Below, in pieces: positions 1 to 51,343 of a DNA stretch of 64,000 bases. Within the stretch, counting starts at the first letter, position 1; every line of letters starts with the position of its first letter. The position numbers and the translations under genes were made by a program. The notes beneath the pieces are model-generated. The model was not told where the DNA came from and did no database searches. It saw only the letters and a program-made list of their open reading frames with translations. The stretch comes from an uncultured Acidobacteriota bacterium (GTDB lineage: Bacteria; Acidobacteriota; Terriglobia; Acidiferrales; UBA7541), in the NCBI GenBank assembly GCA_963807765.1, contig CAWECV010000002.1, positions 777,436-841,435 of the forward strand. Reading direction: 5' to 3'.

Positions 1-198
1 GCCTTGACTGGCAAACGAGAGGTTTACTGGGGTAGCCGGAGCGGCGAGGCCCGGATTTATCGCTGGGAATCTCTTCAACCCGGGAATCGCGTGGAAGGTT
101 GTGCGATTCTGGAGGGCGCGAGTACGACGTATTTCGTGTCCGAAGGATGGACGATGGTGCTGGACGGCTTCGGAAACGGAGATTTAAGCCGCAGCTAG
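1..198 (+). CDS. hydantoinase A/oxoprolinase-family (HyuA-type) subunit, C-terminal fragment; 5' end lies upstream of the window
   Basis: The open frame enters from the window edge. Its last ~60 aa (..VYWGS..LQPGNRVEGCAILEGASTTYFV..) parallel the C-terminus of the full-length HyuA-type protein at 624..2744 (..VYWPE..LRPGNVVEGPAVIEGEYTTVVV..). Confidence 0.65.
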   Translation, partial: ALTGKREVYWGSRSGEARIYRWESLQPGNRVEGCAILEGASTTYFVSEGWTMVLDGFGNGDLSRS

Positions 199-240
199 TT
201 GCTACAATCGCTTCGAAGCTCGATTCAAATGGGAAATTAA

Positions 241-627
241 ATGCCAGCGAAATCGCAAAATTGGATTCGAATCACCGAGCACCTTGACCTCGACCTCGAC
301 CGCGAGGAATGGCGATGCAATCGCTGTGGGCGCGTACTCGGGCCCGCGCGCGAAAACTATAAAAAGGGCTGCCTCGTTTACGATCGTGACCCGCGCGAGA
401 TTCATCCGCCAATTGTTTCAGGCTCCTTCAGCTTTTCTCCGGATCCGCTCTGGGTCCGCATCGTCGAGTTCTACTGCCCCGGCTGCGGCACTCAGATTGA
501 GACGGAATATCTGCCGCCCGGCCATCCCATCACGAATGACATCGAAATCGATCTCGACAAATTGAAAGACCGCCTCCGGAAAGGCGAATTTGTGATTCGC
601 GGTCAGCGCCTCGAGGCTGCCGAATGA
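241..627 (+). CDS. small Zn-binding subunit resembling acetone/acetophenone carboxylase gamma subunit
   Basis: 128-aa ORF with two CxxC pairs (CNRCG, CPGCG) and the size and layout of the Acetone_carb_G family. Its stop overlaps the next start (ATGA at 624-627). Confidence 0.75.
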   Translation: MPAKSQNWIRITEHLDLDLDREEWRCNRCGRVLGPARENYKKGCLVYDRDPREIHPPIVSGSFSFSPDPLWVRIVEFYCPGCGTQIETEYLPPGHPITNDIEIDLDKLKDRLRKGEFVIRGQRLEAAE

Positions 628-2744
628 ATTCAATCGACATCGACGTCGGCGGAACATTCACCGACTTGGTCCTTCATTTCGGCGGCCAGACGCTGATCAA
701 GAAAGTTTCAACGACGCCCTATGACCTTTCGGTTTGTTTCTCGCGCGTCATCGAGGAAGGCGCGAAGTCGCTCGGATTGAAAACCGAAGAGCTTTTGCCG
801 GGCATCGACATGATCCGCTATTCGACTACGATCGCGATGAACCGGCTCATCGAACGCAGAGGGCCGCGTCTCGGGCTGATTACCACAGAAGGCCACGAGG
901 ATGTGGTTCTGATCGGCCGGGGCGCGCAATGGATTGATGGGACGCGCGTCGCCGAGCGCCGCAATCTTGCCATTCAGCGCAAACCCGAGCCCTTGATTCC
1001 GCGCGACATGATCGTCGGCGTGAAGGAGCGCGTGGATTCGCGCGGCAACGTGATCCGCTCGCTCGACGAGAACAACGTGCGTGAGAAAGTGCGCTATCTC
1101 GTCTCGCGCGGCGCGCGCGGCTTTGTCGTCTCGTTTCTCTGGGGCTTCTTGAATCCCATTCACGAGCGGCGCGTGAAGGAAATCATCCGCGACGAGTACA
1201 AGGAATTTCACATCGGCTACTTGCCGGTCGTTCTCGCAGGACAAGTCGTCGGCAAGCTCGGCGAATACGAAAGGACTCTCGCCGCGATTCTTGATGCCTA
1301 TCTTCAGCGCTCAATGCAGATCGAACTCTCCGCGATGTGGGACAAGCTCCGCGAGCGCGGCTACACGCGGCCATTGCTCATGATTCAGAGCTCCGGCGGC
1401 ATCGCGGAGGTGTTTCGCACAACCGCCAGCCGCACGTTCAACAGCGGCCCGGTTTCCGGCCTGATGGGCGCGCACCACGTCGCACAGTCGCTCGGCTACC
1501 AGAACGTGGTGATGTCCGACATGGGCGGCACGAGCTTCGACGTCGGCCTCGTCGTGAAAGACAGCGTCCGCAGCTACGATTTTCGACCGATCATCGATCG
1601 CTGGATGGTTGGAATCACGATGATCAAGACGCTTTCGATTGGCGCCGGCGGCGGCTCGATCGCTTCGATCAACAAGCTGCTGCAGAATCGCGTTCAAGTC
1701 GGCCCGCGCAGCGCCGGTTCGATGCCAGGACCCGCATGCTTCAATCTCGGCGGGACGGATCCGACCGTAACCGACGCGGACGTCGTCCTCGGCTATATCA
1801 ATCCCGATTACTACTTCGGCGGCAAGATGCGACTCGAGAAAAATCGGTCGATTCAGGCGATTCGCGAGAAAATTGCCGAGCCACTCGGCGTAAGCGTCGA
1901 AGAAGCCGCGGAAATCATCCGCAAGATTGTGAACGGCAACATGTCGTCCGCCATCATGAAAGAAGTCCACTTGCGCGGGCACAGTCCCGAAGAATTCATT
2001 TTGTTTGTCGGTGGCGGCGCAGGGCCGACGCATGCCGAGGGCTTCAAGGGCGACATTCCGAAGGCGGTTACGTTTCCGTTTTCACCTGTGTTTTGCGCGT
2101 TCGGCTCGTCCACAATGGACATCATGCATGTCTACGAGGCGTCGAAAAAGCTCACGCTGTTGACGCCCGGAAGCCAGCAAGTGACGGACGAGTACGCCAT
2201 TTTCAATCACACCGTCCAATCGCTGCTCGAGCAGGCGCGCAAGGATCTTGTCGGCGACGGACTCGATCCGGCCCACGCCGCCTTCGTGCTTGAATTGGAC
2301 ATGCTCTACGGCGGACAGTTCCACGTGAAACGCGCGCTTTCGCCGCGAATGGAGCTCGCGAGCCGCGACGATGTTCTGGCCATCTGCGAGGCGTTCAAGA
2401 AAGAGTTCAGCGAAGCATTCAGCCCGTTCGTGGTGAACCCCGAAGGCGGCGTGTTCATCGAAAGTTTCATCCTCAAGGCCATCGTGCCAACGAAAAAAGT
2501 GCAATTGCCGACGATGAAGCTCGAGGGGGCGAACCCGTTCGCGGCTCGAAAAGGCGAACGCCCCGTCTATTGGCCCGAGGCGAAAGATTTTCGCACGACG
2601 CCAACATTCAGCTACGAAGCGTTGCGGCCGGGAAACGTCGTCGAGGGCCCGGCCGTAATCGAAGGCGAATATACGACCGTCGTCGTGCCGCCGCCGCTTC
2701 ATTTTCGAATTGACGAACGCGGACTTGGTATTCTGGAAGCCTGA
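624..2744 (+). CDS. hydantoinase A/oxoprolinase-family ATPase subunit (HyuA-type; acetone/acetophenone carboxylase-like)
   Basis: 706-aa ORF. It has the N-terminal IDVGGTFTD and central DMGGTSFDV sugar-kinase-fold ATPase motifs typical of Hydant_A_N/Hydantoinase_A proteins. Confidence 0.9.
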   Translation: MNSIDIDVGGTFTDLVLHFGGQTLIKKVSTTPYDLSVCFSRVIEEGAKSLGLKTEELLPGIDMIRYSTTIAMNRLIERRGPRLGLITTEGHEDVVLIGRGAQWIDGTRVAERRNLAIQRKPEPLIPRDMIVGVKERVDSRGNVIRSLDENNVREKVRYLVSRGARGFVVSFLWGFLNPIHERRVKEIIRDEYKEFHIGYLPVVLAGQVVGKLGEYERTLAAILDAYLQRSMQIELSAMWDKLRERGYTRPLLMIQSSGGIAEVFRTTASRTFNSGPVSGLMGAHHVAQSLGYQNVVMSDMGGTSFDVGLVVKDSVRSYDFRPIIDRWMVGITMIKTLSIGAGGGSIASINKLLQNRVQVGPRSAGSMPGPACFNLGGTDPTVTDADVVLGYINPDYYFGGKMRLEKNRSIQAIREKIAEPLGVSVEEAAEIIRKIVNGNMSSAIMKEVHLRGHSPEEFILFVGGGAGPTHAEGFKGDIPKAVTFPFSPVFCAFGSSTMDIMHVYEASKKLTLLTPGSQQVTDEYAIFNHTVQSLLEQARKDLVGDGLDPAHAAFVLELDMLYGGQFHVKRALSPRMELASRDDVLAICEAFKKEFSEAFSPFVVNPEGGVFIESFILKAIVPTKKVQLPTMKLEGANPFAARKGERPVYWPEAKDFRTTPTFSYEALRPGNVVEGPAVIEGEYTTVVVPPPLHFRIDERGLGILEA

Positions 2745-2770
2745 GCGCGCCGAGCGGTAGAAGGAGAGCT

Positions 2771-4831
2771 ATGCCGATTCCCACACTCGCGGAAAAACTG
2801 GAATGGCTGAAGCCGGCTCCGTCATCACCATATGAAAAAGAGTGCGCCGCCAAGGTGCGGCAAGGCGATTATGAAATCGGCGTTCAGATTACGAACGACA
2901 TACTCGACGAAGCGATGGAAGTGTTCGTCCGATCGTCACGCAGCTATTTCGGAGTTTCCGGCGATTCCATGGTGGCCATTTTTAGCGCGAATGGCGACTT
3001 GATCAACGCATCCTGCGGCACCTATCTGCATGCCATCATTCAGCCGATCGTAATCAAATTCATTCAGAAGTATTACAGGGACAACCCCGGAATTCGCGAG
3101 GGCGACATTTGGTATACGAACGACGCTCTTTACGGCGGCATCCACAATCCCGATCAGGTCGCATTAATGCCGATTTACTACAAAGGGCAGCTCCTCGCGT
3201 GGGCCTCTGCCGCGCTGCACACCACGGAAACCGGAGCGATCGAGCCCGGAGGCATGCCTGTAAGCGCGCGTTCGCGTTTCGAGGAAGGACTGAATCTTCC
3301 TCCCATCAAAATTGGGGAGAACTTCGAGCTGCGGAATGACTTTCTCGAGTTCTACTCGGTCTATGGCCTTCGCGCGCCGGCGATGTTCATTTCCGATCTT
3401 CGCGCGCGCTGCACCACGGCCGATCGTGTTCGAATTCGCATGATTGAGCTTGCGGAAAAGCGCGGGCCGGATTTCGTCGTCGGCCTGCTGCGCAAAATGT
3501 GCGACACCGCCGAGGAAGGCGCGCGAAAGAAAATCGAGGCGCTGCCTGACGGAAAATTTCGCGCCGTGGTCTTCAACGATGCGATTGGATGGACGCCCGC
3601 GCTCGTGCGCGCCTGCAACCTGACTCTCATCAAGGAAGGCGGCAAGCTCACGTTTGACTTCCATGGCACGTCGCCCGAGAATCCTTCGTCTTACAACGTC
3701 CATCCACAGGCCGTCGTCGGGCACATCGCGAATTTCATGTACGAGTACATCTTTCACGACCTTCCGATTTGCAGCACCACGTTCGCGCCGATCGATTTCG
3801 TCTTTCCCGAAGGCATCATCCTGAATCCCGACAAAATGGCGGCGACCAGTTGCTGCGTCTTCATCGGCATGCAGGCGCGCTGCGCCACCCATAATGCGTT
3901 TGCGAAAATGGCGTTTTCGAGCGCAGAGCTTTGGCGCCAGATCGCCGCGGCGCCCGGCAGCCAGCATACTTCGCAAATCTGCGCGGGGCTTTCGCAATGG
4001 AAGCTCGCGGTCGCCGACGTTCTTTCATTTTCGCTCAACACCATGGGACAGGGCGGCCGCGCTTCGAGCGACGGCATGGACGCATACGGTTTCGCGTGGT
4101 GCGCGTTCGGCCGCGCGCCCGATTCTGAACAAGTAGAAAGCGAGTTGCCGTTGACAGTGACGCTCTCGCAGCACTGGAAGGATTCCTGCGGCCACGGCCT
4201 CCATCGCGGCGGCGCCGGCGGCGTGCAACAATGGATGATTCACAAAATGCCGAATCTTGTTTCCATGTGCATGGGCAACGGCAGCAAGGTGCCGCTGGGC
4301 CAGCCGCTCTTCGGCGGTTACGCATCCGCGCCGATTCCCGGCATCAGCATTCGCAAATCGGATTTGCTGGCGAGAATGCAAGAGGGCGATTCGAGCGTCT
4401 CGCTCGATCACCGCGATATCCTGGAAAACGGCACAATTCACGGCAATTGGAATTTCGAGCTCGTTGCGCGCACGCCCAAGGTGTATGAAGAAGGCGACTT
4501 GCTTTTCGGATTCAGCGGCGGCGGGCCGGGCTACGGGGATCCCCTGGAACGCGATCCGCTGGAAATTCTTGATGACTTGCGCAAAAACATCATTTCGGAC
4601 TGGACGGCGCGAAATATTTACCGGGTCGCGTACGATCCAGAGCGCCGCAAGCTCGATGCCGAGAAGACCAAACAACTGCGCGACGCCGAACGACAGGCGC
4701 GCCTTGCTCGCGGAAAGTCCTTTGATGAGTTTGCAGCCGACTGGAATAAGCAAAGCCCGCCGACAGAAATCTTGCAGTGGTATGGCTCCTGGCCCGACGC
4801 TAAACCGCTCGGCCCCGTTTTCCGCCCTTGA
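2771..4831 (+). CDS. hydantoinase B/oxoprolinase-family subunit (HyuB-type)
   Basis: 686-aa ORF with HyuB-like blocks (GDIWYTNDALYGGIHNPD, GGAGGV...). It follows the HyuA gene after a 26-nt gap. Confidence 0.85.
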   Translation: MPIPTLAEKLEWLKPAPSSPYEKECAAKVRQGDYEIGVQITNDILDEAMEVFVRSSRSYFGVSGDSMVAIFSANGDLINASCGTYLHAIIQPIVIKFIQKYYRDNPGIREGDIWYTNDALYGGIHNPDQVALMPIYYKGQLLAWASAALHTTETGAIEPGGMPVSARSRFEEGLNLPPIKIGENFELRNDFLEFYSVYGLRAPAMFISDLRARCTTADRVRIRMIELAEKRGPDFVVGLLRKMCDTAEEGARKKIEALPDGKFRAVVFNDAIGWTPALVRACNLTLIKEGGKLTFDFHGTSPENPSSYNVHPQAVVGHIANFMYEYIFHDLPICSTTFAPIDFVFPEGIILNPDKMAATSCCVFIGMQARCATHNAFAKMAFSSAELWRQIAAAPGSQHTSQICAGLSQWKLAVADVLSFSLNTMGQGGRASSDGMDAYGFAWCAFGRAPDSEQVESELPLTVTLSQHWKDSCGHGLHRGGAGGVQQWMIHKMPNLVSMCMGNGSKVPLGQPLFGGYASAPIPGISIRKSDLLARMQEGDSSVSLDHRDILENGTIHGNWNFELVARTPKVYEEGDLLFGFSGGGPGYGDPLERDPLEILDDLRKNIISDWTARNIYRVAYDPERRKLDAEKTKQLRDAERQARLARGKSFDEFAADWNKQSPPTEILQWYGSWPDAKPLGPVFRP

Positions 4832-4834
4832 ACG

Positions 4835-5854
4835 ATGACTGAAAACATCACTCCGCGCCAAGCCGTCAAAGACCTGCTGCAAGGGATTGCGCCACAGAGC
4901 CCTCTTTTTCTCCCGATTGTCTTTTCTCTCGGCGCCCGCATCGAAAACCTTTCCTTGCGCAGCTTTCTGTCGAATCCAACGAAGATATCGAATTCTTTAC
5001 GTCAGATTCGCGCTCGCGCGCGTTCCGAAGGAATTACGTGCTACTGCGATCCGTATCTTGAAGCTCAGGCGCTCGGCGCGGTGGTCGACTGGGAATCCGA
5101 CGACCGTCCTCGCGGTGTGCGCTGGCCCGATGCCCGCCCAGGCGCCGATATTTCAAGCAGGTTGTCGTCCCCCGATGACGCCGCGAAATCGCAAGGTGTA
5201 GTCGCCGGAGTCGAAGTGATTCGCCGGCTGAAATCTCTGGTTCGAGACGGCACGCTTTTGACCGCATGCGTCACCGGACCGCGCACTCTCGTTTCGCTCG
5301 TTGTGAATGAAAATGAATCCGCTGCCGCGCAATCCGCGGCCAGCCGTGGCTCAAATGTTGAATTCGCCGCCGCGGTGGTATCACGAATCGCTTCAGCATT
5401 CGCCGAAGCTGGCGCAAACGCTGTCTTTATTCGCGAGGATGTCCTGCCGGCCGATTCTCCCGAAGCGTTCTCAAACTGGTTGCGAGCGCTCGCGACCGCA
5501 ATCAACATTATCCGATTCTATGAAGCGCTTCCGGTTCTTGTGGTCACGAATCCTGGCGTCACGACCGCCAAACGCGCCGAACTGCTCAATCAGCTTAAAG
5601 ATTGTGTGGTTTGCTTCGTATTGGGAGAGAGTGCGGGGGCCGAGACGCCGGGAAGCGCCAAGGTCGCATCATCGCGCGCTGGCCTCGCGCTGCCTCCGGA
5701 ATTATTCGACCCAGCAGGGCCCGCCTCGAACAATGAAAACCTGCGTCAACTTATTGCCGAGCAGCGTCCGGCGCTCATTACTACCGCGGGCGACGTTCCA
5801 CCTACCGCCGACGTGAAGCGCTTGAATCAGGTATGGGAAATCCTGCATTGTTGA
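4835..5854 (+). CDS. uroporphyrinogen-decarboxylase (URO-D/MtaA)-fold protein of unknown role, possible accessory subunit
   Basis: 339-aa ORF starting 3 nt after the HyuB stop. The N-terminal third resembles MtaA/URO-D family proteins (..PLFLPIVFSLGARI...DPYLEAQALGAVVDW..). Confidence 0.55.
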   Translation: MTENITPRQAVKDLLQGIAPQSPLFLPIVFSLGARIENLSLRSFLSNPTKISNSLRQIRARARSEGITCYCDPYLEAQALGAVVDWESDDRPRGVRWPDARPGADISSRLSSPDDAAKSQGVVAGVEVIRRLKSLVRDGTLLTACVTGPRTLVSLVVNENESAAAQSAASRGSNVEFAAAVVSRIASAFAEAGANAVFIREDVLPADSPEAFSNWLRALATAINIIRFYEALPVLVVTNPGVTTAKRAELLNQLKDCVVCFVLGESAGAETPGSAKVASSRAGLALPPELFDPAGPASNNENLRQLIAEQRPALITTAGDVPPTADVKRLNQVWEILHC

Positions 5855-5870
5855 TGCAGTAGAGCGATCG

Positions 5871-7811
5871 ATGAGCCAGTCGAGTCAGCCACGGGAACAC
5901 GGCGGCGCAGCCGCCAGCTCGCGCTATCGTGGAACGCATCGGCAAGAGGCCAGCGCGAAAACGAGTGAGCGCGTGCGACCGGTTCGTCTGCGCACGTCTG
6001 GCGTCACCTTGCATCGCGGCGCCGATGGCTCGTTTCTGATCCGGCCCAATGAGCCGCTGCGTCCTTATCCCAAAGTTCTTACCGATCGCGTGATGCATTG
6101 GGCTCGCGTCGCGCCGAATCGTTGCTGCATCGCGAAACGCGATTCGAATGGCGAATGGCGGCGGTTTACCTACTCGGAAGTGATGGATTCAGCCCGGCGT
6201 ATCGGCCAGGCGCTGCTCGATCGCAATCTTTCAATCGAACGTCCGGTGACTATTCTTTCGGAGAACGATCTCGAGCATTTTTTGTTGATGCTCGCGGGCC
6301 AACACGTTGGGATTCCGACCGCGCACCTCTCGCCGGTGTATTCTCTCGTCTCGCGCGATTTTGCAAAGTTGCGGCATGCTCTGAAACTGCTCACGCCGGG
6401 CCTTGTGTTTGTCTCGGACGGCGCGCGTTATCGCCGCGCAATCGAGGCCTCTGTAGACGCGGCAACGGAACTGGTCGTCGGGCAAAATCCGCCGCCGCGC
6501 TCGAACACCTCTCTCTTCGCTGATTTGCTCAAGGCCGAGCCGACATCCGATGTGGATCGCGCTCACGGAGGCATCGATCCCGATGCGCCTGCAAAATTTC
6601 TCTTCACATCCGGCTCTACTGCCGCGCCAAAGGGCGTCATCAACACGCATCGAATGATTTGCAGCAACCTCGAGATGATCGCTCAGGTTTTTGGCTTCCT
6701 CGAAGACAAGCCGCCGGTGATCGTCGATTGGCTGCCGTGGAACCACACCTTTGGCGGAAACCACAACATCGGAATCTCCCTCTACAACGGCGGCACTTTC
6801 TATATTGACGACGGCAAACCCGGCGCAGGATTTATCGATGAAACAATCCGCAATCTGCGCGAAATCTCGCCCACTGTGTACTTCAACGTGCCGAAGGGGT
6901 ACGAAGACCTCCTCCCCGCCCTGAATTCCGATTCCGCGTTGCGTCGCAATTTTTTCCGCGACCTCGATCTTCTCTTTTACGCGGGCGCCGGGCTCTCGCA
7001 GCCCGTCTGGGACGCATATCGAAATCTCGCTATCGAATCGTGCGGCGAGCGCATCATTATGGTGACGGGGCTCGGCGCAACCGAAACCGCCCCAATGGCG
7101 ATTCAGACGACCTGGGAGACGCATTACGCCGGCGTCATCGGGTTGCCGATTCCCGGAGTGGAGTTGAAGCTGGTTCCGCGCGATCACAAGCTCGAAGCTC
7201 TGGTTCGCGGCCCGAATATCACTCCCGGCTATTGGCGGCAGCCGGAGCTGACCGCAAAAGTTTTCGACGACGAAGGCTTTTACAAATTCGGCGATGCGGT
7301 GCGCTTCGTCGACCCGTCGGATGTCAGCGAAGGCTTTCTTTTTGACGGACGGTTCTCCGAGGATTTCAAGCTGGCGAGCGGCACATGGGTCAGCGTCGGC
7401 CCGTTGCGCGCGAAGATCCTGGGCCATTTTTCGCCATTTGTTCGCGACGTCGTGATCGCGGGCCACGATCGCGATGAGGTCACAATGCTCGTTTTTGCAG
7501 ACTTGATCGCGTGTTGCTCGCTCGATTGCGGACTTTCATCCGATGCCTCGCCGGCCGAGATACTCCGGCATCCTTCGGTCCGCTCACATTTTCAATCGCT
7601 GCTCGAAGGACTTGCAGCGGGCGCAACCGGCAGCTCGAATCGCGTCGTTCGCGCAATTCTCGTTGAGGAGCCGCCTTCGCTCGATGCCGGCGAAATCACG
7701 GACAAAGGTTCGCTCAACCAGCGAGCGGTGATCGAGCGACGAGCGGCTCTGATCGAACAACTCTACGCAGTTGAGCCGTCTAACACTATTCTGCGCATCA
7801 CGGAGAAGTGA
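5871..7811 (+). CDS. AMP-dependent acyl-CoA synthetase, long feruloyl-CoA-synthetase (Fcs)-like type
   Basis: Carries the AMP-binding P-loop LFTSGSTAAPKGV and a TGLGATE block. The N-terminal region (..LIRPNEPLRPYPKVLTDRVMHWA..WRRFTY..) resembles Pseudomonas-type Fcs from memory. The exact start is uncertain. Confidence 0.85.
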   Translation: MSQSSQPREHGGAAASSRYRGTHRQEASAKTSERVRPVRLRTSGVTLHRGADGSFLIRPNEPLRPYPKVLTDRVMHWARVAPNRCCIAKRDSNGEWRRFTYSEVMDSARRIGQALLDRNLSIERPVTILSENDLEHFLLMLAGQHVGIPTAHLSPVYSLVSRDFAKLRHALKLLTPGLVFVSDGARYRRAIEASVDAATELVVGQNPPPRSNTSLFADLLKAEPTSDVDRAHGGIDPDAPAKFLFTSGSTAAPKGVINTHRMICSNLEMIAQVFGFLEDKPPVIVDWLPWNHTFGGNHNIGISLYNGGTFYIDDGKPGAGFIDETIRNLREISPTVYFNVPKGYEDLLPALNSDSALRRNFFRDLDLLFYAGAGLSQPVWDAYRNLAIESCGERIIMVTGLGATETAPMAIQTTWETHYAGVIGLPIPGVELKLVPRDHKLEALVRGPNITPGYWRQPELTAKVFDDEGFYKFGDAVRFVDPSDVSEGFLFDGRFSEDFKLASGTWVSVGPLRAKILGHFSPFVRDVVIAGHDRDEVTMLVFADLIACCSLDCGLSSDASPAEILRHPSVRSHFQSLLEGLAAGATGSSNRVVRAILVEEPPSLDAGEITDKGSLNQRAVIERRAALIEQLYAVEPSNTILRITEK

Positions 7812-7814
7812 ACA

Positions 7815-9056
7815 ATGTCAGCTTCAGGCGGAATTTTCTGCGAGTACAAGGATACTTGGCTGCTGGATGGCGTGCGCACACCTTTTGCCGACTACAACGG
7901 CGTTCTTGGCCTCGTCTCGCCGATTGATCTTGGCATCAAGGCCGCGCGCGCCGTCTTCGAACGCTCCGGCATCCCTCCCGCGGACGTCGGGTCAGTAATC
8001 GCGGGCAGCGTTGCGCAGGCCAGTTTCGATGCCTACGTTCTGCCGCGTCACGTCGGAATCTATTCGGGCGTTCCGATCGATCGGCCCGCCCTGCTTGTGC
8101 AGCGCGTCTGCGGCACGGGCGTTGAAGCGATTGGTCAGGCCGCCGATGGAATTGCGCTCGGCAAGTTCGAACTCGGCCTTTGCGTCGGCGCGGAATCCAT
8201 GAGCCGGAATCCCATCGCGGCCTACACGCACCGCGGCGGATTCAAGATGGGCCAGGTGGAGTTTAAGGATTTTCTTTGGGAAGCGCTCCTCGATACCGCC
8301 CCGGGCGTCACGATGGGGCAAACGGCCGAGGCCGTGGCAAAAACCTACAAGATCAGCCGCGAAGACGCGGACCGCTTCGCCGAATTGAGCTTTTCGCGCG
8401 CGGTTGCTGCGCAGAAGGCCTGCTTCCTTTCGGGCGAAATTGTCCCGCTCGTGAACGAGAGCTTCGAGTTGCCGGGCTACAAGACTCGCGGAATTCGCCT
8501 CGCGAAAGGCACCGAGAAACTCGAGATCGACACACATATCCGCCCGTCGTCGTTCGAGGTTCTCTCCAAAATTCCTCCGGCGTTCGGCGGCGTACAAACC
8601 GGCGGCAATAGCTCGGCGATCGTCGACGGAGCTGCGGCAGCGCTTGTCGGAAGCGGCGCCTATGCGAAGTCTCGCGGGACTCGTCCACTGGCCCGCGTCG
8701 CAGCAGTTGCGGCGGTGGGCGTCCCTCCCGAAATCATGAGCATTGCCCCGGCCCCCGCGATCCGAAAACTGCTTTCCGGCGCAGGCCTCAGCCTCGATGC
8801 CATCGACCGCTTTGAAATCAACGAAGCGTTCGCCGCGCAATTGATCAGCGTGGAGCGCGAGCTCAAGCTCGATCGCGCGAAACTGAATGTCAACGGCGGC
8901 GCGATCGCCATCGGCCATCCGCTCGCTGCGACGGGCGTCCGGCTTGCCATCACTCTCGCGCGCGAATTACAGCGCTCGAAATTGCGCTACGGCGTCGCGT
9001 CCGCATGTATCGGCGGCGGTCAGGGCATCGCCATGCTCCTCGAAAATCCGCAATAA
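7815..9056 (+). CDS. acetyl-CoA C-acyltransferase (thiolase)
   Basis: Has the active-site Cys region QRVCGTGVEA and C-terminal NGGAIAIGHPLAATG and ACIGGGQGIAM thiolase signatures. Confidence 0.9.
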   Translation: MSASGGIFCEYKDTWLLDGVRTPFADYNGVLGLVSPIDLGIKAARAVFERSGIPPADVGSVIAGSVAQASFDAYVLPRHVGIYSGVPIDRPALLVQRVCGTGVEAIGQAADGIALGKFELGLCVGAESMSRNPIAAYTHRGGFKMGQVEFKDFLWEALLDTAPGVTMGQTAEAVAKTYKISREDADRFAELSFSRAVAAQKACFLSGEIVPLVNESFELPGYKTRGIRLAKGTEKLEIDTHIRPSSFEVLSKIPPAFGGVQTGGNSSAIVDGAAAALVGSGAYAKSRGTRPLARVAAVAAVGVPPEIMSIAPAPAIRKLLSGAGLSLDAIDRFEINEAFAAQLISVERELKLDRAKLNVNGGAIAIGHPLAATGVRLAITLARELQRSKLRYGVASACIGGGQGIAMLLENPQ

Positions 9057-9065
9057 GGCGGCGCG

Positions 9066-9497
9066 ATGCTCGTCAACCGAAAGGAAATTCGCATCGAGTG
9101 GGGAGATTGCGATCCCGGCGGAATCGTCTTCTTCCCCCGCTATTTCGAATATTGCGACGCCTGCACGAACGCTCTGTTCGAGCGCGCCGGCCTTCCGAAG
9201 CCCACGCTCTTCAAATCGTATGGAATCGGCGGCATCCCGCTCGTGGAAGTCCGCGCGCGATTTATGGTGCCGTCGCAATTCGGCGATACGGTCACGGTCG
9301 AGTCAAGCGTTTCGGAATGGGGGCGCAGCAGTTTCTCCGTCCGCCATCACATTTTCAAAGAGGACGTTTTGGCGCTCGAAATATTTGAAAAACGAGTCTG
9401 GGTCGCGCGGCTGGAAGGCGACGTCATTCGATTCAAGGGCCAGCCGATTCCGCAAGAAGTGAAAGATCGATTTTCGCGTTCGACGCCGCCAGCCTGA
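9066..9497 (+). CDS. hotdog-fold acyl-CoA thioesterase, 4-hydroxybenzoyl-CoA thioesterase (Pseudomonas 4HBT) type
   Basis: 143 aa. N-terminal IEWGDCDPGGIVFFPRY matches the GDCDPAGIV catalytic-Asp motif of Pseudomonas-type 4HBT as I remember it. The later SEWGRSSFSVRH block is also similar. Confidence 0.75.
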   Translation: MLVNRKEIRIEWGDCDPGGIVFFPRYFEYCDACTNALFERAGLPKPTLFKSYGIGGIPLVEVRARFMVPSQFGDTVTVESSVSEWGRSSFSVRHHIFKEDVLALEIFEKRVWVARLEGDVIRFKGQPIPQEVKDRFSRSTPPA

Positions 9498-9579
9498 CGC
9501 TGGACCCGCGGCCCTCGATGCGTCGCGGTCGTGGCGAACGCAATTTTGGTTTAGAATTCGTCTTCACACGGAGGACAAA

Positions 9580-10080
9580 ATGCCGGCAACGGATGCAGGA
9601 AGCAGCCTCGATGCGGTCGTTCGCGAATACGGACGCCCAGATTGCCACATTGGAGCCGGCGAGGACGAATCGCCTTACGTTCCCTTCGTCGAAAATGTTT
9701 ACATCCGTCACTTGGCCTTCGACGTGCGCAGCAATTCGTTCGCGAATATTCTTTGGGTGAAGAAGAATGGAGTGCTCGGCCGCCATCGGCACCGCGGCCC
9801 CGTTTGGGCCTGCACGCTCGAAGGAAGCTGGCGCTATCTCGAATACGATTGGGTTGCGCGGCCCGGCAGCTACGTGCATGAAAGCCCGGGCGTCATCCAC
9901 ACGCTCGTTTCCGACGATCCGAACGGCATGAAAACGTTTTTCTGGCTCAACGGATCGCTGGAATTCTATGACGATAAGGATAATCTGCTTCAGACCCTCG
10001 ATGTTTTTTGGTTCATCGATCACTATCTCAGTTACTGCAGCGCGCACGGACTGAAAGTGAACGAGAAAATGTTTGTGTGA
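9580..10080 (+). CDS. cupin protein of the 2,4'-dihydroxyacetophenone dioxygenase (DAD) family
   Basis: 166 aa with RHRHRGPVWACTLEGSWRYLEYDWVARPGSYVHESPGVIHTL. This is the His-rich cupin core that characterises proteins annotated as the DAD family (from memory). Confidence 0.65.
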   Translation: MPATDAGSSLDAVVREYGRPDCHIGAGEDESPYVPFVENVYIRHLAFDVRSNSFANILWVKKNGVLGRHRHRGPVWACTLEGSWRYLEYDWVARPGSYVHESPGVIHTLVSDDPNGMKTFFWLNGSLEFYDDKDNLLQTLDVFWFIDHYLSYCSAHGLKVNEKMFV

Positions 10081-10123
10081 CGCTCGCGCGAGCGGGTCGG
10101 CAATCGCACGTCCGCGCTTAAAC

Positions 10124-12607
10124 ATGATTTTGCGCCTACGGCCGGGCAGCCGTCGCCGAGATTCTCTACAGATTCGCCTCCCCTATCCACTCGCACTCGC
10201 GGTTTCGATCTGTCTCTGGACGGCGCTCAGCTGCGTTCCCGCGTTCGCCCAGACATGGCAGCACATCGGCGATGCCCAGCGGGTCGAAAGACTTCGCGAC
10301 GGCGTCGAGTTGGTTGCGGGTCAGGCGCGCGTTCGGGTTACCGCATTTCGCGACGGCGTGGTGCGTGTGCGCTTGGCGCCGAATGGAGCTTTTTCGAGAG
10401 ATTTTTCCTGGGCGGTCATTGAATCCGCCGCGCCGCCCGCGATAAAGATCGACGATTCAAAAGACGAAGTCCGAATCGTCACTCGCCGCATTACCGTTCG
10501 CATCAAAAAATCCCCCATTCTGATCGAATTTGACGATCCATCCGGCCATTCCGTTCTCGCCGACGAGCCTTCCCTTCCGATGGCGTGGGATGGCTCGCGA
10601 ATTCACGTCTGGAAGCGAATGCCTGCGGACGAAGGCTATTACGGTCTCGGCGATAAAGGCGGGCCGCTCAATCGCCGGAATCACGCCTACACCATGTGGA
10701 ACACAGACGCGTACGGCTGGATGGAATTCACCGATCCTCTCTACAAATCGATTCCGTTCTGGATCGGATTGAGGAACGGAGCCGCCTACGGCGTTTTTTT
10801 CGATAACACCTACCGCAGTGATTTCGATTTCGGAAAGGAATCGAACGATTACTATTCCTTCGGCGCCGAGGGCGGAGAGCTAAATTATTACTTTTTTGCT
10901 GGCCCCGCGCCGAAAACAGTCCTGGAAGCATATACCGCGCTGATCGGCCGCACGCCGTTGCCGCCGCTCTGGTCGCTCGGCTATCAACAAAGCCGCTACA
11001 GCTACTATCCCGAGGCTCGCGTTCGCGAAATCGCGCGATTGCTGCGCGAGAAACACATTCCAGCGGACACGATCTATCTCGACATCGACTACCAGGATAA
11101 ATATAAAGTCTTCACCGTCGACCGCGAGCGCTTCCCCACCTTCGAGCAAATGATTCACGATCTTCGCGCCGACGGCTTTCACACTATTTTGATCACCGAC
11201 CTTCACATCAAAATGGAGCCCGGCTACGCGCCCTACGATTCCGGCACGCAGGCCGATGTTTTCGTCAAGAATCCGGATGCCACGCCCTTCCTTGGCGTCG
11301 TCTGGCCGGGCCCGTGCGTGTTTCCGGATTTCACGTTGACGCGCGTCCGCGACTGGTGGGGCAATCTCTACCAGCAGTTTGTGAAAATGGGCGCAGCCGG
11401 ATTTTGGAATGACATGAACGAACCCTCCATCTTCGACCGGCCCGAAAAAACCATGCCGCTCGATACCGTTCATCGCCTGGACGACGGCACCACGCTCGAT
11501 CATCGCGCGATCCACAACGTCTACGGCATGGAAAATGTTCGCGCGACCTTCGACGGCATTCGCAAACTTCAGCCCGGCGAACGCCCCTTCGTCCTCACGC
11601 GCGCCGCGTTCGCGGGAGCGAATCGCTACGCCGCGACCTGGACCGGCGACAACAGCAGCACCTGGGATCATCTTCGCGTCAGCGTCCCGATGCTCATGAG
11701 CCTCGGTATTTCGGGTTATCCGCTGGCTGGCGACGATATTGGCGGATACGCCGGCTCGCCCAGCGCCGATCTCATGACGCGCTGGTTCGAAGTCGGCGCT
11801 CTGAATCCGATCTATCGCGATCACACGGCCAAGGACACTCCCGACAAGGAACCCTGGGTGCAGGGCCCGGAGCACGAAGCGATTCGCCGGCGGTATATCG
11901 AGCTTCGCTACCGGTTGCTGCCCTACATTTACACGGCGGTTGAAGAAATGAACCGCACGGGCCTGCCGCTCATGCGCCCCATCTTTCTCGAGTATCCGCA
12001 AGCGGAGGACTTGCGCGATGAAAGTTATGAATTTCTTTTTGGCCGCGACTTGCTTGTCGCGCCCATCTTGACTGAGGCGCCGCAAGAGCAAGATGTGCGC
12101 TTGCCTCCCGGCGACTGGTACGACTACTGGAGCGGCGCCAAACACGACTCAAGCGAGAAAATTTCCACCCGGCCTCAAATCGACGAGATGCCTCTCTTTG
12201 TTCGCGCCGGAGCGATTCTGCCTGAACAGCCGCTCGTCCAGAACACGAATGAAACGCCTGCCGGCTCGCTCGAATTGCGCGTTTATTCCGGCTCGGATTG
12301 CAACGGCGCGTTGTATCTCGATGACGGCCACACTTATGCCTATGAAAATGGCGGCTTCGCGCGCATCAGCTACTCGTGCAAGAGCTTCCCCAATTCGCTC
12401 ACGATCACCAGCGGGCCGCGCCGTGGAGGCTATCAACCCTGGTGGACCAACATCGAGCTGAACATTTTCGGGGTGCTGCAACGTCCAAAGGAAGTCCGCG
12501 CGGGCGACCGGCTGCTGAACAATTGGGACTTCAACCCTCAAAATCACACGCTTACGTTTTCCTTGCCGGATTCTCGTTCAGGTTGGATTGTGCGGGTGAT
12601 TTACTAA
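10124..12607 (+). CDS. glycoside hydrolase family 31 (alpha-glucosidase/alpha-xylosidase), secreted
   Basis: Has the GFWNDMNEPS nucleophile motif and general GH31 architecture. An N-terminal signal peptide ends ..CVPAFAQ. The ATG at 10124 is preferred over the upstream ORF start at 10073, which overlaps the previous gene. Confidence 0.9.
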   Translation: MILRLRPGSRRRDSLQIRLPYPLALAVSICLWTALSCVPAFAQTWQHIGDAQRVERLRDGVELVAGQARVRVTAFRDGVVRVRLAPNGAFSRDFSWAVIESAAPPAIKIDDSKDEVRIVTRRITVRIKKSPILIEFDDPSGHSVLADEPSLPMAWDGSRIHVWKRMPADEGYYGLGDKGGPLNRRNHAYTMWNTDAYGWMEFTDPLYKSIPFWIGLRNGAAYGVFFDNTYRSDFDFGKESNDYYSFGAEGGELNYYFFAGPAPKTVLEAYTALIGRTPLPPLWSLGYQQSRYSYYPEARVREIARLLREKHIPADTIYLDIDYQDKYKVFTVDRERFPTFEQMIHDLRADGFHTILITDLHIKMEPGYAPYDSGTQADVFVKNPDATPFLGVVWPGPCVFPDFTLTRVRDWWGNLYQQFVKMGAAGFWNDMNEPSIFDRPEKTMPLDTVHRLDDGTTLDHRAIHNVYGMENVRATFDGIRKLQPGERPFVLTRAAFAGANRYAATWTGDNSSTWDHLRVSVPMLMSLGISGYPLAGDDIGGYAGSPSADLMTRWFEVGALNPIYRDHTAKDTPDKEPWVQGPEHEAIRRRYIELRYRLLPYIYTAVEEMNRTGLPLMRPIFLEYPQAEDLRDESYEFLFGRDLLVAPILTEAPQEQDVRLPPGDWYDYWSGAKHDSSEKISTRPQIDEMPLFVRAGAILPEQPLVQNTNETPAGSLELRVYSGSDCNGALYLDDGHTYAYENGGFARISYSCKSFPNSLTITSGPRRGGYQPWWTNIELNIFGVLQRPKEVRAGDRLLNNWDFNPQNHTLTFSLPDSRSGWIVRVIY

Positions 12608-24929: not shown

Positions 24930-27512
24930 CTAGGCGGACTTTACGGGCTGGGCTTCCAACACTTCGGTGAGAATGGCGGCGAGGCCGGAAAGCTGGAATG
25001 GTTTCTGAATCGCGCGGGCTCCGAGAGAGCGGTAGCGATCCATCGCGGCGGAATCAAGCATGTCGCCGGTCATGAAAACGAATCGCGCGGGGCTCGAACC
25101 GCGGCTGTGCAGCCGCGCGAACAATTCCTCGCCGTTCAGTCCCGGCAAATTGTAGTCGCACAGCACAACATCAAACTGGCGCATCGCCAGAATGGCCAGA
25201 GCCTCTTCGCACGAAGCGACCGTTTCCACCGCCATGCCGCGCGCGCCAAGCCCTTCGGACACCAGCTCGCGGATGCCGTCCTCGTCGTCCACCACCAAAA
25301 GCGAATGCCCCTGCAAACCGGGAATCACCTGCTTGGTTTGAGCCGAAACCGTTGAGGTGCCGCTGACCCCCGGCGCGAGCGTCATGGAGGCCGCAACCGG
25401 AAGAATCATCTTGATTGAGGCGCCGCGGCCCGGCACGGAGTGCGCTTCGAGCGTTCCGCCGTGCTCGCGGATGATGGCCATTGAAATCGTCAAACCGAGG
25501 CCCGTGCCGCCGCCGGGACGCTTCGTGGTAAAGAAGGGATCGAACACCCGGCCAAGGATTTCCGGCGGAATTCCTGGGCCATCGTCATCAATGGAAACCA
25601 CGACATTCCCTTCGAGCCGGATAGCGGTGATCTGAATCTTGCCGTGATCGCGGACCGCCGATATGGCCTGCTCGGCATTCACAACCACGTTCAGCAGAAC
25701 CTGCAAAAGGAGGCTTGGGTCGCCCTGGACCGGCGGCAAATCGGGCGTCGGTTGGAATTCGAGCGCGATGTGCTTTTTGTTGAGGGTGACGCCATGAAGC
25801 TGAAGCAAGCGTTCGACGAGCTGGTCGACGTGCACCGGCGTGCGTCCCGGCGCGGCCCGGCGCGAAAACGCCAGAAGGCTCTGTACGATGTCCGCGGCGC
25901 GGCGAGCCTGCTGCCGGACGAGTTCGGTCTGGCGGCGCGTGGAATCATCGGTGGCGCGTTCGCGCAGAAGGTCGGAAACGCCGAGGATGGCCGTGAGCGG
26001 ATTATTCAACTCGTGCGCCACTCCAGCGAGCATCTGGCCCATGGCCGCGAATTTTTCGGCCTGGATGAGTTGTTCCTGGAATTGCCTCTCGTCGGTAACG
26101 TCGCGCGCGGATGCAACCACGCCGCTGGTTTGCCCGTCGGCGCCCATCAATGGACTGGCGGTGACGCGCACCATCCGCCAGCTCCCCTTGGCATGGCGAA
26201 CGCGATATTCAAAGCGGGCGAAACGCGAGGCTCCGCTGACCAGATTCCGGAACTCCTGCTGCAGGTGCTCGATATCTTCAGGATGGGCTCGCGTCCCGAT
26301 CGTCTCTCCGATCAGCTCGGACGGAGGTACGCCAATGAGTTCTTCGCAGCGCGGGCTGATGAAAGTGAATTTGCCGGTGGCGTCCAGCGCGACGATCATA
26401 TCCGGGAAGCACTCGACCAGGCGGCGGCCGAATTCCTGCTCCTGCAGCAGGCGCCGCTCGATTTCGACGCGCTCGGTGATATCGACGAGCGTGCCTTGAA
26501 TCCTCGAGATCTTTCCCGCGCCATCGCGGATCGCCGAGCAGGAATCGATGCAGCGAATTTTCTTGCCGTCTTTTCGAACCAGCGTGACTTCGAAGTTCCG
26601 CACCGTGCCGGTTTTTTCTAATTCGTTGATCTTCCAGGACCGGATCTGAGGATCGTCGTAGAAGGCGGACTTGTTGAGCAGCATGACTTCCTCTTTGTGG
26701 TCGTATCCCAGCATGCGAACCAGAGCTGGATTGCATTCGAGGAGCTTGCCTGCGGCCGTGCTGAAATACACGCCTTCCTGAAGCGATTCGAAAAGTTCGG
26801 TGAAGCGCAGCTCGGATTCGCGTTGCGAGGTGACGTCGCGGGCCACGCCGCTGATGGCGACCACGTCCTCGCTTTTGAGAATGGGCTGAAGCACCGTATC
26901 AAAGTAGCGGATGCTGCCGGTCTTCTTGATCCGGGCCTTGATGATGCCGGTCCAGGATTTCTTCTCCAGCAGAACCGGAACGATGCTTTGCGCCATCTCT
27001 TTCGTCGGCTCCGAGAAAAACTCGGCGAACGAATGGCGGACGACGTCGTTGAAAGATACATTCAGAATATCGGTGAATCGGCGATTGACCACTTTGATTT
27101 CGCCGCTGAGAGACGCGTTGAAAACAATGTGATCGAGACTGTCGATCAGCTCGCGATAGCCATGCTGCGACCGCGCCACGATATCCAAAAGCTTTTCGAT
27201 CTGCTCATCGGAAGGGGGCTTCGACGCGCCTTCCTGAATCCCGCGCGCATAGCCGCGCAGCTCCACCATCTCGCGGCGCTGCCTCCAGACGTATACGCCG
27301 AAGAGCGCCACGAGAATCACCAGGCCGATCGGCAGCGCCTCGAGGCGCAACTTGCCGGAGTGAACCGACTCCCAGGACGACACACCCAGGCCAATTGCCA
27401 GAAGAATCAGAATGATGAAACTCGAGCGCCAAAGATTGCGCTCTCGCTGTTCCATCTTCTGCCAAACGGCGTCTTTGGCCACTTTTTGTGAGTCGTCTGG
27501 TTCGTGCGCCAT
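24930..27512 (-). CDS. hybrid sensor histidine kinase/response regulator with two N-terminal TM helices and multiple PAS domains
   Basis: H-box AGVAHELNNPLTAILG, ATPase G-box GGGTGLGLTIS, and C-terminal receiver (SLLVVDDEDGIREL..VLCDYNLPGLNG). Confidence 0.9.
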   Translation of the reverse strand: MAHEPDDSQKVAKDAVWQKMEQRERNLWRSSFIILILLAIGLGVSSWESVHSGKLRLEALPIGLVILVALFGVYVWRQRREMVELRGYARGIQEGASKPPSDEQIEKLLDIVARSQHGYRELIDSLDHIVFNASLSGEIKVVNRRFTDILNVSFNDVVRHSFAEFFSEPTKEMAQSIVPVLLEKKSWTGIIKARIKKTGSIRYFDTVLQPILKSEDVVAISGVARDVTSQRESELRFTELFESLQEGVYFSTAAGKLLECNPALVRMLGYDHKEEVMLLNKSAFYDDPQIRSWKINELEKTGTVRNFEVTLVRKDGKKIRCIDSCSAIRDGAGKISRIQGTLVDITERVEIERRLLQEQEFGRRLVECFPDMIVALDATGKFTFISPRCEELIGVPPSELIGETIGTRAHPEDIEHLQQEFRNLVSGASRFARFEYRVRHAKGSWRMVRVTASPLMGADGQTSGVVASARDVTDERQFQEQLIQAEKFAAMGQMLAGVAHELNNPLTAILGVSDLLRERATDDSTRRQTELVRQQARRAADIVQSLLAFSRRAAPGRTPVHVDQLVERLLQLHGVTLNKKHIALEFQPTPDLPPVQGDPSLLLQVLLNVVVNAEQAISAVRDHGKIQITAIRLEGNVVVSIDDDGPGIPPEILGRVFDPFFTTKRPGGGTGLGLTISMAIIREHGGTLEAHSVPGRGASIKMILPVAASMTLAPGVSGTSTVSAQTKQVIPGLQGHSLLVVDDEDGIRELVSEGLGARGMAVETVASCEEALAILAMRQFDVVLCDYNLPGLNGEELFARLHSRGSSPARFVFMTGDMLDSAAMDRYRSLGARAIQKPFQLSGLAAILTEVLEAQPVKSA

Positions 27513-37613: not shown

Positions 37614-37745
37614 TCTGAGTTACCTCTCCCCCTTAGGGGTTGGCCGGCGCCGGCAGTCGGATAGGACACCCGTACTGGCGGCCCGGGAAGGACGTGTTAC
37701 GAGGTTGATGTTTCCGATGAAGCAAGTGTTTAGGCGAAATCCTTG

Positions 37746-37764
37746 GCGCCCGGATCGCGGGCGC
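37746..37764 (-). terminator. hairpin GCGCCCG-N5-CGGGCGC in the rplL-rpoB spacer; candidate attenuator
   Basis: 7-bp GC stem read directly, 14 nt downstream of the rplL stop. The U-tract is weak. Confidence 0.3.
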
Positions 37765-37777
37765 GATGCCGCCGCCA

Positions 37778-38164: not shown

Positions 38165-38182
38165 TGCGTTTATCCCATCCTC

Positions 38183-38713: not shown

Positions 38714-38752
38714 CCCTTGCTCCTCGTTCGATACAGAAAATCTGCGCGCGAA

Positions 38753-39478
<726 letters not shown>

Positions 39479-39492
39479 GTCTCTCTCTTCTC

Positions 39493-51315: not shown

Positions 51316-51343
51316 TTGGCGATTTTGGCCATGTTTGGATCCG

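Follow-up and report, generated by a model that had tools for sequence, protein, structure and literature searches.

What does an uncultured acidobacterium do with a set of genes resembling those for acetophenone carboxylase (Apc)? The question is raised by the first 10,080 positions of a 64,000-nt stretch of DNA (contig CAWECV010000002.1, positions 777,436 to 841,435; the whole stretch is called the window below) from a member of the Acidobacteriota, in which five carboxylase-like genes are followed by genes for a coenzyme A (CoA) ligase, a thiolase, a thioesterase and a cupin. Sequence comparison placed the five-subunit set in the Apc-type carboxylase family, as borne out by family assignment, subunits, motifs and synteny in some 70 species. 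We consider it probable that the cluster encodes an Apc-type ketone carboxylase together with a product-shortening pathway that would lead from a 4-hydroxyphenyl ketone to 4-hydroxybenzoate; the activity, the order of the steps and the substrate are what we infer.

An initial annotation, made from the letters of the sequence, had read positions 1–10080 as nine co-directional, tightly packed genes with an ATGA overlap at 624–627. Open reading frame (ORF) listing and translation reproduced this layout on the + strand, and a Pfam profile search confirmed every domain call. The gaps that follow the overlap were 26, 3, 16, 3 and 9 nt, with 82 nt before the cupin gene. The subunit names alpha’, gamma, alpha, beta and epsilon, for the products of apcA to apcE, are those of Weidenweber et al. 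The nine genes are as follows.

1–198, + strand: 3’ end of an apcA-like gene, 65 codons (1–195) and the stop (196–198); Pfam Hydant_A_C, E 9.7e-14.
241–627, + strand: apcB-like gene for a small Zn-ribbon subunit (gamma), 128 aa; Acetone_carb_G, E 4.9e-36.
624–2744, + strand: apcC-like gene for a large HyuA-type subunit (alpha), 706 aa; Hydant_A_N, Hydantoinase_A, Hydant_A_C.
2771–4831, + strand: apcD-like gene for a HyuB-type core subunit (beta), 686 aa; Hydantoinase_B, E 1.2e-77.
4835–5854, + strand: apcE-like gene for a fifth subunit (epsilon) of URO-D/MtaA-like fold, 339 aa; URO-D, E 6e-10.
5871–7811, + strand: AMP-forming acyl-CoA ligase of the feruloyl-CoA synthase (Fcs) type, 646 aa; AMP-binding.
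7815–9056, + strand: thiolase, 413 aa; Thiolase_N, Thiolase_C.
9066–9497, + strand: hotdog thioesterase of the 4-hydroxybenzoyl-CoA thioesterase type, 143 aa; 4HBT_2, 4HBT.
9580–10080, + strand: cupin resembling 2,4’-dihydroxyacetophenone dioxygenase, 166 aa; Cupin_7.

A consensus scan against shuffled sequence found no promoter- or terminator-like site above chance in the intergenic gaps of the cluster. This absence fits a single operon without proving it, and the nine genes are presumed to be co-transcribed.

For each of the first five proteins, the best NCBIfam model was that of the corresponding acetophenone carboxylase subunit. Identities to ApcA, ApcB, ApcC, ApcD and ApcE were 38, 63, 60, 53 and 27%, respectively. 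These were measured against an Aromatoleum-type locus (L086), which was reached by a protein search with the 5L9W_A sequence followed by a contig look-up, and whose ApcD is 97% identical to the protein of Aromatoleum aromaticum EbN1. Cut-offs quoted below for the five subunits are NCBIfam equivalog cut-offs, that is, same-function score thresholds for ApcA to ApcE.

The truncated first gene had been taken for a second HyuA paralogue, and this proved correct. A metagenome contig (L001) shares 1178 nt with the window, 0 mismatches among them, and continues for another 1296 nt upstream, which extends the ApcA-like protein to 497 aa; full-length ApcA-like proteins in relatives are 663–668 aa as called. 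Among solved structures in the PDB the 497-aa protein matched the apcA product best (5L9W_b, Apc alpha’, 354 bits vs 210 for the apcC product and 152 for the next family). Aligned to 5L9W_b, it keeps the polar site E248, D274 and K281 and the motifs DxGGT (as DIGGTT) and GxxPGP (as GSFPGP), and it lacks the R/KERiDsxG fingerprint. The ApcA of a relative (L003) scored 672 with NCBIfam, where the cut-off is 1250.

The small subunit matched Acetone_carb_G, as predicted for a gamma-like protein, and matched ApcB better (192 bits; cut-off 250). Its PDB score was 174 bits to 5L9W_C, at 63–64% identity, vs 31 bits to the gamma subunit of acetone carboxylase, and its Cys4 Zn site is kept in two CxxC pairs, CNRC and CPGC. 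The ApcC-like protein scored 1071 bits with ApcC (cut-off 1500) vs 444 with the alpha subunit of caprolactamase; its PDB scores were 994 bits to 5L9W_B vs 340 to acetone carboxylase, and 340 or less to other families. It carries the ASKHA motifs DVGGTFTD, DMGGTS and GSMPGP, and it alone among the HyuA paralogues has the fingerprint, as KERVDSRG. Scores for the ApcD-like protein were 899 bits with ApcD (cut-off 1500) vs 130 with the beta subunit of caprolactamase, and, in the PDB, 855 bits to 5L9W_A vs 146 to acetone carboxylase and 146 or less to other families. The ~35-kDa protein of URO-D fold, proposed as a fifth subunit, was borne out as such: its best NCBIfam model was ApcE (90 bits; cut-off 450), and its sole significant PDB match was the epsilon subunit of acetophenone carboxylase (9FOU, 70 bits; 27% over 234 aa).

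Annotation criteria for Apc were set out by Weidenweber et al. in 2017 (gene order, lengths of ~680 and ~130 aa, motifs; PMC5214803). The present set has the order apcABCD(E), the Cys4 site, the ASKHA motifs, the fingerprint and E248/D274/K281, and its subunit lengths agree as well, the HyuB-type protein having 686 aa and the small subunit 128 aa vs 776 and 168 aa in acetone carboxylase. Acetone carboxylase (AcxABC) belongs to the same superfamily, carries out ATP-dependent ketone carboxylation and has a gamma subunit with Acetone_carb_G; however, it is encoded by three genes, with longer subunits, no second HyuA paralogue and no epsilon, whereas the window has five genes and two HyuA paralogues. 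Hydantoinase, 5-oxoprolinase and caprolactamase are two-gene hyuAB systems that lack a gamma subunit; the window has one, and its proteins match Apc better. The NCBIfam, PDB and tree results thus agreed with the initial annotation in reading an Apc-like five-gene set, and not an acetone carboxylase or hydantoinase/oxoprolinase layout. None of the refuting conditions that the annotation had named and that sequence can address applied.

Membership of this superfamily also allows another reading, in which the enzyme is an ATP-dependent hydrolase of the lactamase, hydantoinase or oxoprolinase type with extra subunits, and not a carboxylase. Genes for a RutB-like protein and an alpha/beta-hydrolase, which are typical amide or ester hydrolases, lie directly upstream of apcA in many relatives and would suit such an enzyme. 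The known hydrolases, however, are two-gene hyuAB systems that lack gamma, alpha’ and epsilon (PMC5214803), scores to caprolactamase, oxoprolinase and N-methylhydantoinase were 2- to 9-fold below those to Apc, and the close linkage to a CoA ligase and a thiolase fits a beta-keto acid product. We regard a hydrolase as highly improbable.

We then asked where this carboxylase stands among its relatives. Apc has been characterised only from A. aromaticum, where it converts acetophenone to benzoylacetate with ATP and bicarbonate, 2 ATP giving 2 ADP (PMC5214803); the initial annotation had likewise named a single denitrifying betaproteobacterium as the biochemically described source. A protein search with the window’s ApcD returned more than 857 relatives, and the best 120 were all at least 81% identical; their named members were metagenome-assembled genomes (MAGs) of Candidatus Acidiferrales, Acidoferrales or Acidoferrum. 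GTDB species, each represented by one genome, were scanned with an alignment in which the Aromatoleum ApcD was one of the sequences; a relative was found in 304 genomes, of which the best 80 were kept as loci. These 80 were close acidobacterial relatives only (80–92% identity). The titles of nearly all describe them as MAGs of Acidobacteriota (Acidiferrales or Terriglobia), with two labelled otherwise (Polarisedimenticolia, Limnocylindrales); their sources were soils, Danish and other, SPRUCE peat and a permafrost palsa. No cultured organism was found among the top ApcD protein matches or the best 80 of the 304 genomes.

Clustering of the library at 50% identity left the window’s ApcD with one close representative, P0241 (82% identical, 1360 bits); the next were at 44% or less (600 bits). 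The Aromatoleum ApcD scores 855 bits to that of the window and must therefore fall under P0241, so that the acidobacterial and proteobacterial proteins form one cluster. A neighbour-joining tree, drawn with no bootstrap support, placed the acidobacterial clade and a proteobacterial one (Aromatoleum, Bradyrhizobium, Comamonas, Steroidobacteraceae) as sisters on a long common stem; outside them fell the Acx-like proteins, which are longer, and over 30 further Apc-like lineages. The sister placement and the gap in the clustering indicate that, of the relatives known, the window’s enzyme stands nearest to the single Apc characterised so far. That is, by these comparisons the carboxylase is an uncharacterised sister lineage of the known enzyme. 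Clusters resembling apcABCD(E) outside Aromatoleum were noted in 2017, with caution on assigning function, by Weidenweber et al. (PMC5214803); for Apc in Acidobacteria or Acidoferrales our literature search gave passing or automated annotation mentions only.

The four downstream genes bear on what becomes of the carboxylation product. The ligase scored 761 bits with NCBIfam PRK12582 (cut-off 777) and was 51–54% identical, over 94–98% of its length, to annotated feruloyl-CoA synthases, in keeping with its earlier designation as Fcs-type. One of the matching synthases lies in a Ralstonia solanacearum cluster with MarR, hydroxycinnamoyl-CoA hydratase/lyase, aldehyde dehydrogenase and fcs (ech-vdh-fcs). 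A search of solved structures with the ligase found distant ANL enzymes only, a malonyl-CoA ligase being the best at 77 bits. The family usually acts on 4-hydroxyphenyl C3 acids, and we predict that the window’s protein is an aroylacetate-CoA ligase. The thiolase scored 372 bits with TIGR01930, above the cut-off of 240, with BktB-like and PcaF-like models next, and the motifs VCGTG, GNSS, GHP and CIGGG were seen in its translation; it is predicted to split aroylacetyl-CoA into aroyl-CoA and acetyl-CoA.

Three of the four best PDB matches of the thioesterase were deposited as 4-hydroxybenzoyl-CoA thioesterases. The top match was 1BVQ (72 bits, E 6e-19, 41% over 91 aa), and the GDCDP motif is kept. 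This motif holds the catalytic Asp17 in the Pseudomonas CBS3 type of 4-hydroxybenzoyl-CoA thioesterase (1BVQ, 1LO7). The cupin matched 5BPX and 4P9G best (88 bits, E 5e-24, 40% over 132 aa) and keeps the HxH...H motif of metal-binding His ligands. These two structures are of the 2,4’-dihydroxyacetophenone dioxygenase of Alcaligenes sp. 4HAP, which yields 4-hydroxybenzoate from a derivative of 4-hydroxyacetophenone and to which the window’s cupin is 40% identical; in the window the gene for this dioxygenase-like cupin is embedded in a carboxylase operon. An alpha-hydroxylation/dioxygenase route for hydroxyphenylethanones is known from that Alcaligenes strain.

The pathway that we propose would run as follows. 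By analogy with Apc, the ApcC-like subunit, a putative ketone kinase, would phosphorylate the enol of an aryl methyl ketone, and the ApcA-like subunit, a putative bicarbonate kinase, would phosphorylate bicarbonate. The ApcD-like core, with the ApcB-like and ApcE-like subunits, would then combine the two activated species into an aroylacetate, which is a beta-keto acid; the reaction would cost 2 ATP and proceed independently of biotin. The Fcs-type ligase would convert the aroylacetate to its CoA thioester, the thiolase would cleave the aroylacetyl-CoA to acetyl-CoA and aroyl-CoA, and the thioesterase would free the aromatic acid for oxygen-dependent ring degradation. The cupin may convert an alpha-hydroxylated form of the ketone to the same product, 4-hydroxybenzoate. 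A TonB-dependent receptor encoded upstream in most relatives may import the substrate; what the window’s cluster holds beyond the 1296 nt added upstream (a regulator, a receptor) is judged from relatives. We name 4-hydroxybenzoate as the product because the thioesterase is 4HBT-like, the cupin is dioxygenase-like, the closest relatives carry pobA and the ligase is of the hydroxycinnamate type. The sequences suggest that the physiological substrate is 4-hydroxyacetophenone-like, perhaps also of the acetovanillone type, and the accessory genes point away from acetophenone itself.

The obvious comparison is the ApcABCDE-Bal cluster of A. aromaticum EbN1, in which the same five genes stand in the same order, encode subunits of similar size and are directly followed by the gene for a CoA ligase (Bal, benzoylacetate-CoA ligase). 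The two systems have in common the Cys4 Zn site, the ASKHA kinase sites of both HyuA-type subunits and the fingerprint of the alpha subunit. The initial annotation had extended the likeness to the whole of apc1-5 plus bal; for the five carboxylase genes it stands, whereas the ligase is no orthologue of Bal. Bal is a PaaK-type protein of 464 aa, the window’s ligase is Fcs-type with 646 aa, and the similarity between them was not significant (E 0.37). The window’s operon belongs to another phylum and, unlike that of Aromatoleum, also encodes a thiolase, a dioxygenase-like cupin and a thioesterase of the 4-hydroxybenzoyl-CoA type. In the Aromatoleum-type locus L086, apcE is followed by bal, short-chain dehydrogenase genes and a CobW-like gene, with adiRS divergent; in contrast, the acidobacterial locus lacks Aromatoleum’s neighbours, namely adiRS, CobW and the genes for ethylbenzene dehydrogenase and 1-phenylethanol dehydrogenase. 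For A. aromaticum, no thiolase has yet been assigned to the completion of the Apc pathway (PMC4729919).

A thiolase gene is also present in Bradyrhizobium sp. CB1015 (L088), where apcABCDE, a Bal-type ligase gene and a thiolase gene form one operon. Its ApcD is 85% identical to that of Aromatoleum and 52% to that of the window, its thiolase is 27% identical to the window’s, and the locus lacks thioesterase, cupin and pobA. The earlier claim that a built-in thiolase and thioesterase make the window’s cluster a new variant must thus be narrowed: the Bradyrhizobium apc-bal operon also has a thiolase, though a different one, and lacks the thioesterase. Judged by these comparisons, the downstream module is recruited independently of the Aromatoleum type. 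Genes for CobW-family GTPases were seen 3’ of proteobacterial apc-bal (L086:14993–16051, L088:16342–17406), and the acidobacterial clusters lack them. Metal chaperones are among the members of the CobW family, and Apc is a Zn-containing enzyme.

A closer likeness to Aromatoleum than we propose would make the window’s enzyme a functional orthologue, which takes unsubstituted acetophenone (from, for example, ethylbenzene, 1-phenylethanol or plant volatiles) through benzoylacetate and benzoyl-CoA to benzoate. The window’s carboxylase belongs to the sister clade of the sole characterised Apc, all subunits and motifs are kept, and five of the seven residues of the proposed acetophenone pocket of ApcC are identical, the changes being L81M and Q344K. 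The second of these changes tells against orthology: position 344 (residue 335 in the window’s protein) is Lys in 77/77 acidobacterial orthologues, where the proteobacterial proteins have Gln, and this Lys may set substrate specificity. Neither the cluster nor any related locus that was examined has a gene for ethylbenzene dehydrogenase or 1-phenylethanol dehydrogenase; moreover, the equivalog cut-offs were not reached, and the thioesterase, cupin, pobA and ligase type point to para-hydroxylated substrates. On balance we consider an acetophenone-specific orthologue unlikely, and favour a carboxylase for 4-hydroxyphenyl ketones.

We used related acidobacterial loci to ask how constant the cluster is. 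Genes were counted by tblastn with reference proteins in the 68 or 69 loci that had sufficient flank; tblastn was preferred because the greedy ORF caller picked wrong-strand ORFs in this G+C-rich DNA. The counts were as follows.

ApcABC upstream of apcD: 69/69 loci.
ApcE downstream of apcD: 68/68 loci.
TonB-dependent receptor upstream: 55/69 loci.
RutB-like isochorismatase-family hydrolase: 43/69 loci.
Alpha/beta-hydrolase: 30/69 loci.
Fcs-type ligase: 51/68 loci.
Ligase of PaaK type, similar to Bal along its full length at 35% identity (E 2e-99): 6/69 loci.
Any CoA ligase: 56/68 loci.
Thiolase: 40/68 loci.
Thioesterase: 18/68 loci.
Cupin: 10/68 loci.
pobA: 5/68 loci.

The interchange of Fcs-type and PaaK-type ligases fits a conserved need to activate the acid product with CoA. 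An AraC/FeaR-like regulator gene was found upstream of the receptor gene in four loci. The nearest relatives, L008 and L010, have an ApcD 92% identical to that of the window and share the order receptor, (hydrolase), isochorismatase-like protein, ApcABCDE, ligase, thiolase, thioesterase, PobA, cupin and GH31 alpha-glucosidase. In L003 and L009, which are one contig fetched twice, pobA likewise lies between the thioesterase and cupin genes, and the L003 protein scored 544 with TIGR02360, above the equivalog cut-off of 538.7; the tblastn match at this position in L008 and L010 was 77–78% identical to L003 PobA. In a nucleotide alignment, 93 nt of the window (9475–9568) correspond to 1306 nt of L008 (16770–18076) that hold the pobA match, indicating that the window carries a pobA-less version of the same cluster.

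An example of the hydrolase genes upstream is L003 (3949–5411), where those for an alpha/beta-hydrolase and a RutB-like isochorismatase-family hydrolase lie immediately 5’ of apcA, with a 7-nt gap. The RutB-like protein scored 275 bits to TIGR03614, under the cut-off of that model. Between apcE and the ligase gene, L003 (13176–14672), and also L028 and L032, encode a 498-aa Amidohydro_2 (PF04909) protein with no NCBIfam match. The Amidohydro_2 family includes aromatic-acid decarboxylases and hydratases.

Several observations weigh against a carboxylation route to 4-hydroxybenzoate. All five subunits missed the equivalog cut-offs, so that same-function status is not established by the NCBI standard, and the ApcE-like protein is only 27% identical to ApcE. 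The acidobacterial Apc clade is known from sequence alone. The proposed ketone pocket hardly differs from the one in the acetophenone enzyme (5/7 residues identical), and specificity therefore cannot be read from it. The low counts for pobA (5/68), cupin (10/68) and thioesterase (18/68) mean that the 4-hydroxy reading rests on a minority sub-lineage, and the window itself lacks pobA. No ligase gene was found in 12/68 loci, and no downstream gene at all in 11/68. The RutB-like hydrolase and the alpha/beta-hydrolase have no role in the proposed scheme. Lastly, A. aromaticum itself handles 4-hydroxyacetophenone with a different, biotin-dependent carboxylase (PMC9618137).

A further reading has a different ketone as the substrate, either a methyl ketone of aliphatic or alicyclic type or a lignin ketone with methoxy groups such as acetovanillone or acetosyringone, with the ligase and thiolase serving as a generic beta-keto-acid cleavage module. 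In 25/68 loci the cluster has ligase and thiolase only and no aromatics-specific gene. Weidenweber et al. urged caution on functions across the wider Apc branch (PMC5214803), and 8–9/69 relatives have MetE-like and MTHFR genes ahead of the cluster. On the other side, the ligase falls in the hydroxycinnamate (Fcs) family and not in that of acetoacetyl-CoA synthetase, and the window’s thioesterase and cupin match aromatic-specific enzymes best. We think such a ketone quite unlikely as the substrate, and retain a 4-hydroxyphenyl ketone as the preferred one.

The MetE-like and MTHFR genes belong to a set of three same-strand genes that, in those relatives, come shortly before the hydrolase genes and apcA; the set encodes a 406-aa protein with no Pfam match, a short MetE-like protein (Meth_synt_2) and an MTHFR+DUF5981 protein. 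The set lies at L017:9–3572, and was also found in L018, L019, L022, L024, L025, L027 and L062, and at L004:1–37. Such neighbours hint at methyl-group transfer or O-demethylation tied to the cluster. The URO-D/MtaA-like fold, as in ApcE, is in the same fold clan as the catalytic domain of MetE. In L057 (15607–19783), genes for a MetE-like protein, an AprA-like methyltransferase (PF23525, PF23526) and a pyridine nucleotide-disulfide oxidoreductase lie downstream of the thioesterase gene.

How does the proposed pathway compare with the ways in which hydroxyphenylethanones are known to be degraded? The described routes begin with a kinase, a biotin carboxylase and a phosphatase, with Baeyer-Villiger oxidation or with ring hydroxylation; the first of these, the Hpe/Acv/Xcc route, continues with a ligase and a beta-keto hydrolase or with VceA/VceB, and no described route uses an Apc-type enzyme (PMC13101465, PMC9618137, bioRxiv 10.1101/2022.04.28.489975). 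The systems Hpe of Rhodococcus rhodochrous GD02, Acv-VceAB of Sphingobium lignivorans SYK-6 and Xcc of A. aromaticum share the overall chemistry that we predict for the window: an aryl methyl ketone is carboxylated to an aroylacetate, and CoA-dependent cleavage then leads to vanillate or 4-hydroxybenzoate. The window’s predicted aroyl-CoA thioesterase parallels VceB of SYK-6. The enzymes differ, however. In Hpe, Acv and Xcc a phenol kinase acts first, followed by a three-subunit biotin-dependent carboxylase and a phosphatase, whereas the window encodes the unrelated, biotin-independent Apc type; the SYK-6 authors likewise described Apc as unrelated to the SYK-6 carboxylase. By Pfam, no biotin-carboxylase, carboxyltransferase, biotin carboxyl carrier protein or kinase domain was found in the nine cluster genes, nor were these domains found among the called genes of L003–L005 or the recurrent extra genes that were scanned.

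The remainder of the window is core chromosome, with genes for a GH31 alpha-glucosidase, an acyl-CoA dehydrogenase, a DUF711 protein and a PBP1-type penicillin-binding protein as well as glpX, rpoBC, nusG, secE and mreBCD. We considered horizontal transfer of the cluster by base composition and rejected it: composition is uniform, the G+C content of the cluster (0.58–0.60) lies within the range over the window (0.54–0.62), and core genes lie around it. Neither pobA nor a gene for a TonB-dependent receptor, an isochorismatase-like protein or an alpha/beta-hydrolase was found elsewhere in the 64 kb.

The GH31 alpha-glucosidase gene (10073–12607, + strand) adjoins the cupin gene, as it does in L008 and L010, and is probably unrelated to the ketone pathway. 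A start at the listed TTG gives an 8-nt overlap with the cupin gene; more plausible is the ATG at 10124, after which comes a signal-peptide-like stretch. Between rpoB and nusG (37743–39739) the greedy picker listed + strand ORFs with no Pfam match, which are probably shadow ORFs because rplK, rplA, rplJ and rplL are expected there on the − strand. A 613-aa fusion of homocysteine S-methyltransferase and MTHFR domains is encoded amid housekeeping genes (51335–53176, + strand). About 15 kb from the cluster lies a gene for an 860-aa hybrid sensor histidine kinase with several PAS domains and a receiver domain (24930–27512, − strand), with nothing connecting the two.

These results place the closest sister lineage of the sole characterised Apc, widespread in soil Acidobacteriota, in an order with no cultured member among the matches seen. 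As a complete, self-contained operon, the cluster predicts each later step after carboxylation, and its ligase, thiolase and thioesterase genes are candidates for the missing steps of the Apc pathway. Growth on hydroxyphenylethanone-type compounds has been reported for four strains only (PMC13101465). Should the substrate be 4-hydroxyacetophenone or a related lignin ketone, the enzyme would offer a biotin-independent alternative to Hpe/Acv, now engineered for lignin valorisation. We put forward, tentatively, the wider proposal that abundant, uncultured soil Acidobacteriota (Acidiferrales/Acidoferrales) catabolise hydroxyphenylethanones from plants and lignin (4-hydroxyacetophenone, possibly acetovanillone) to 4-hydroxybenzoate by direct, biotin-independent Apc-type carboxylation, Fcs-type ligation, thiolysis and 4HBT hydrolysis, a previously undescribed route. 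If this is true, the kinase and biotin-carboxylase systems (Hpe/Acv/Xcc) on the one hand and the routes by Baeyer-Villiger oxidation or a dioxygenase on the other would be joined by a third mechanistic solution; it would also give the acidobacterial sister clade of Apc its first assigned function, and soil Acidobacteria a concrete role in the turnover of plant aromatic ketones.

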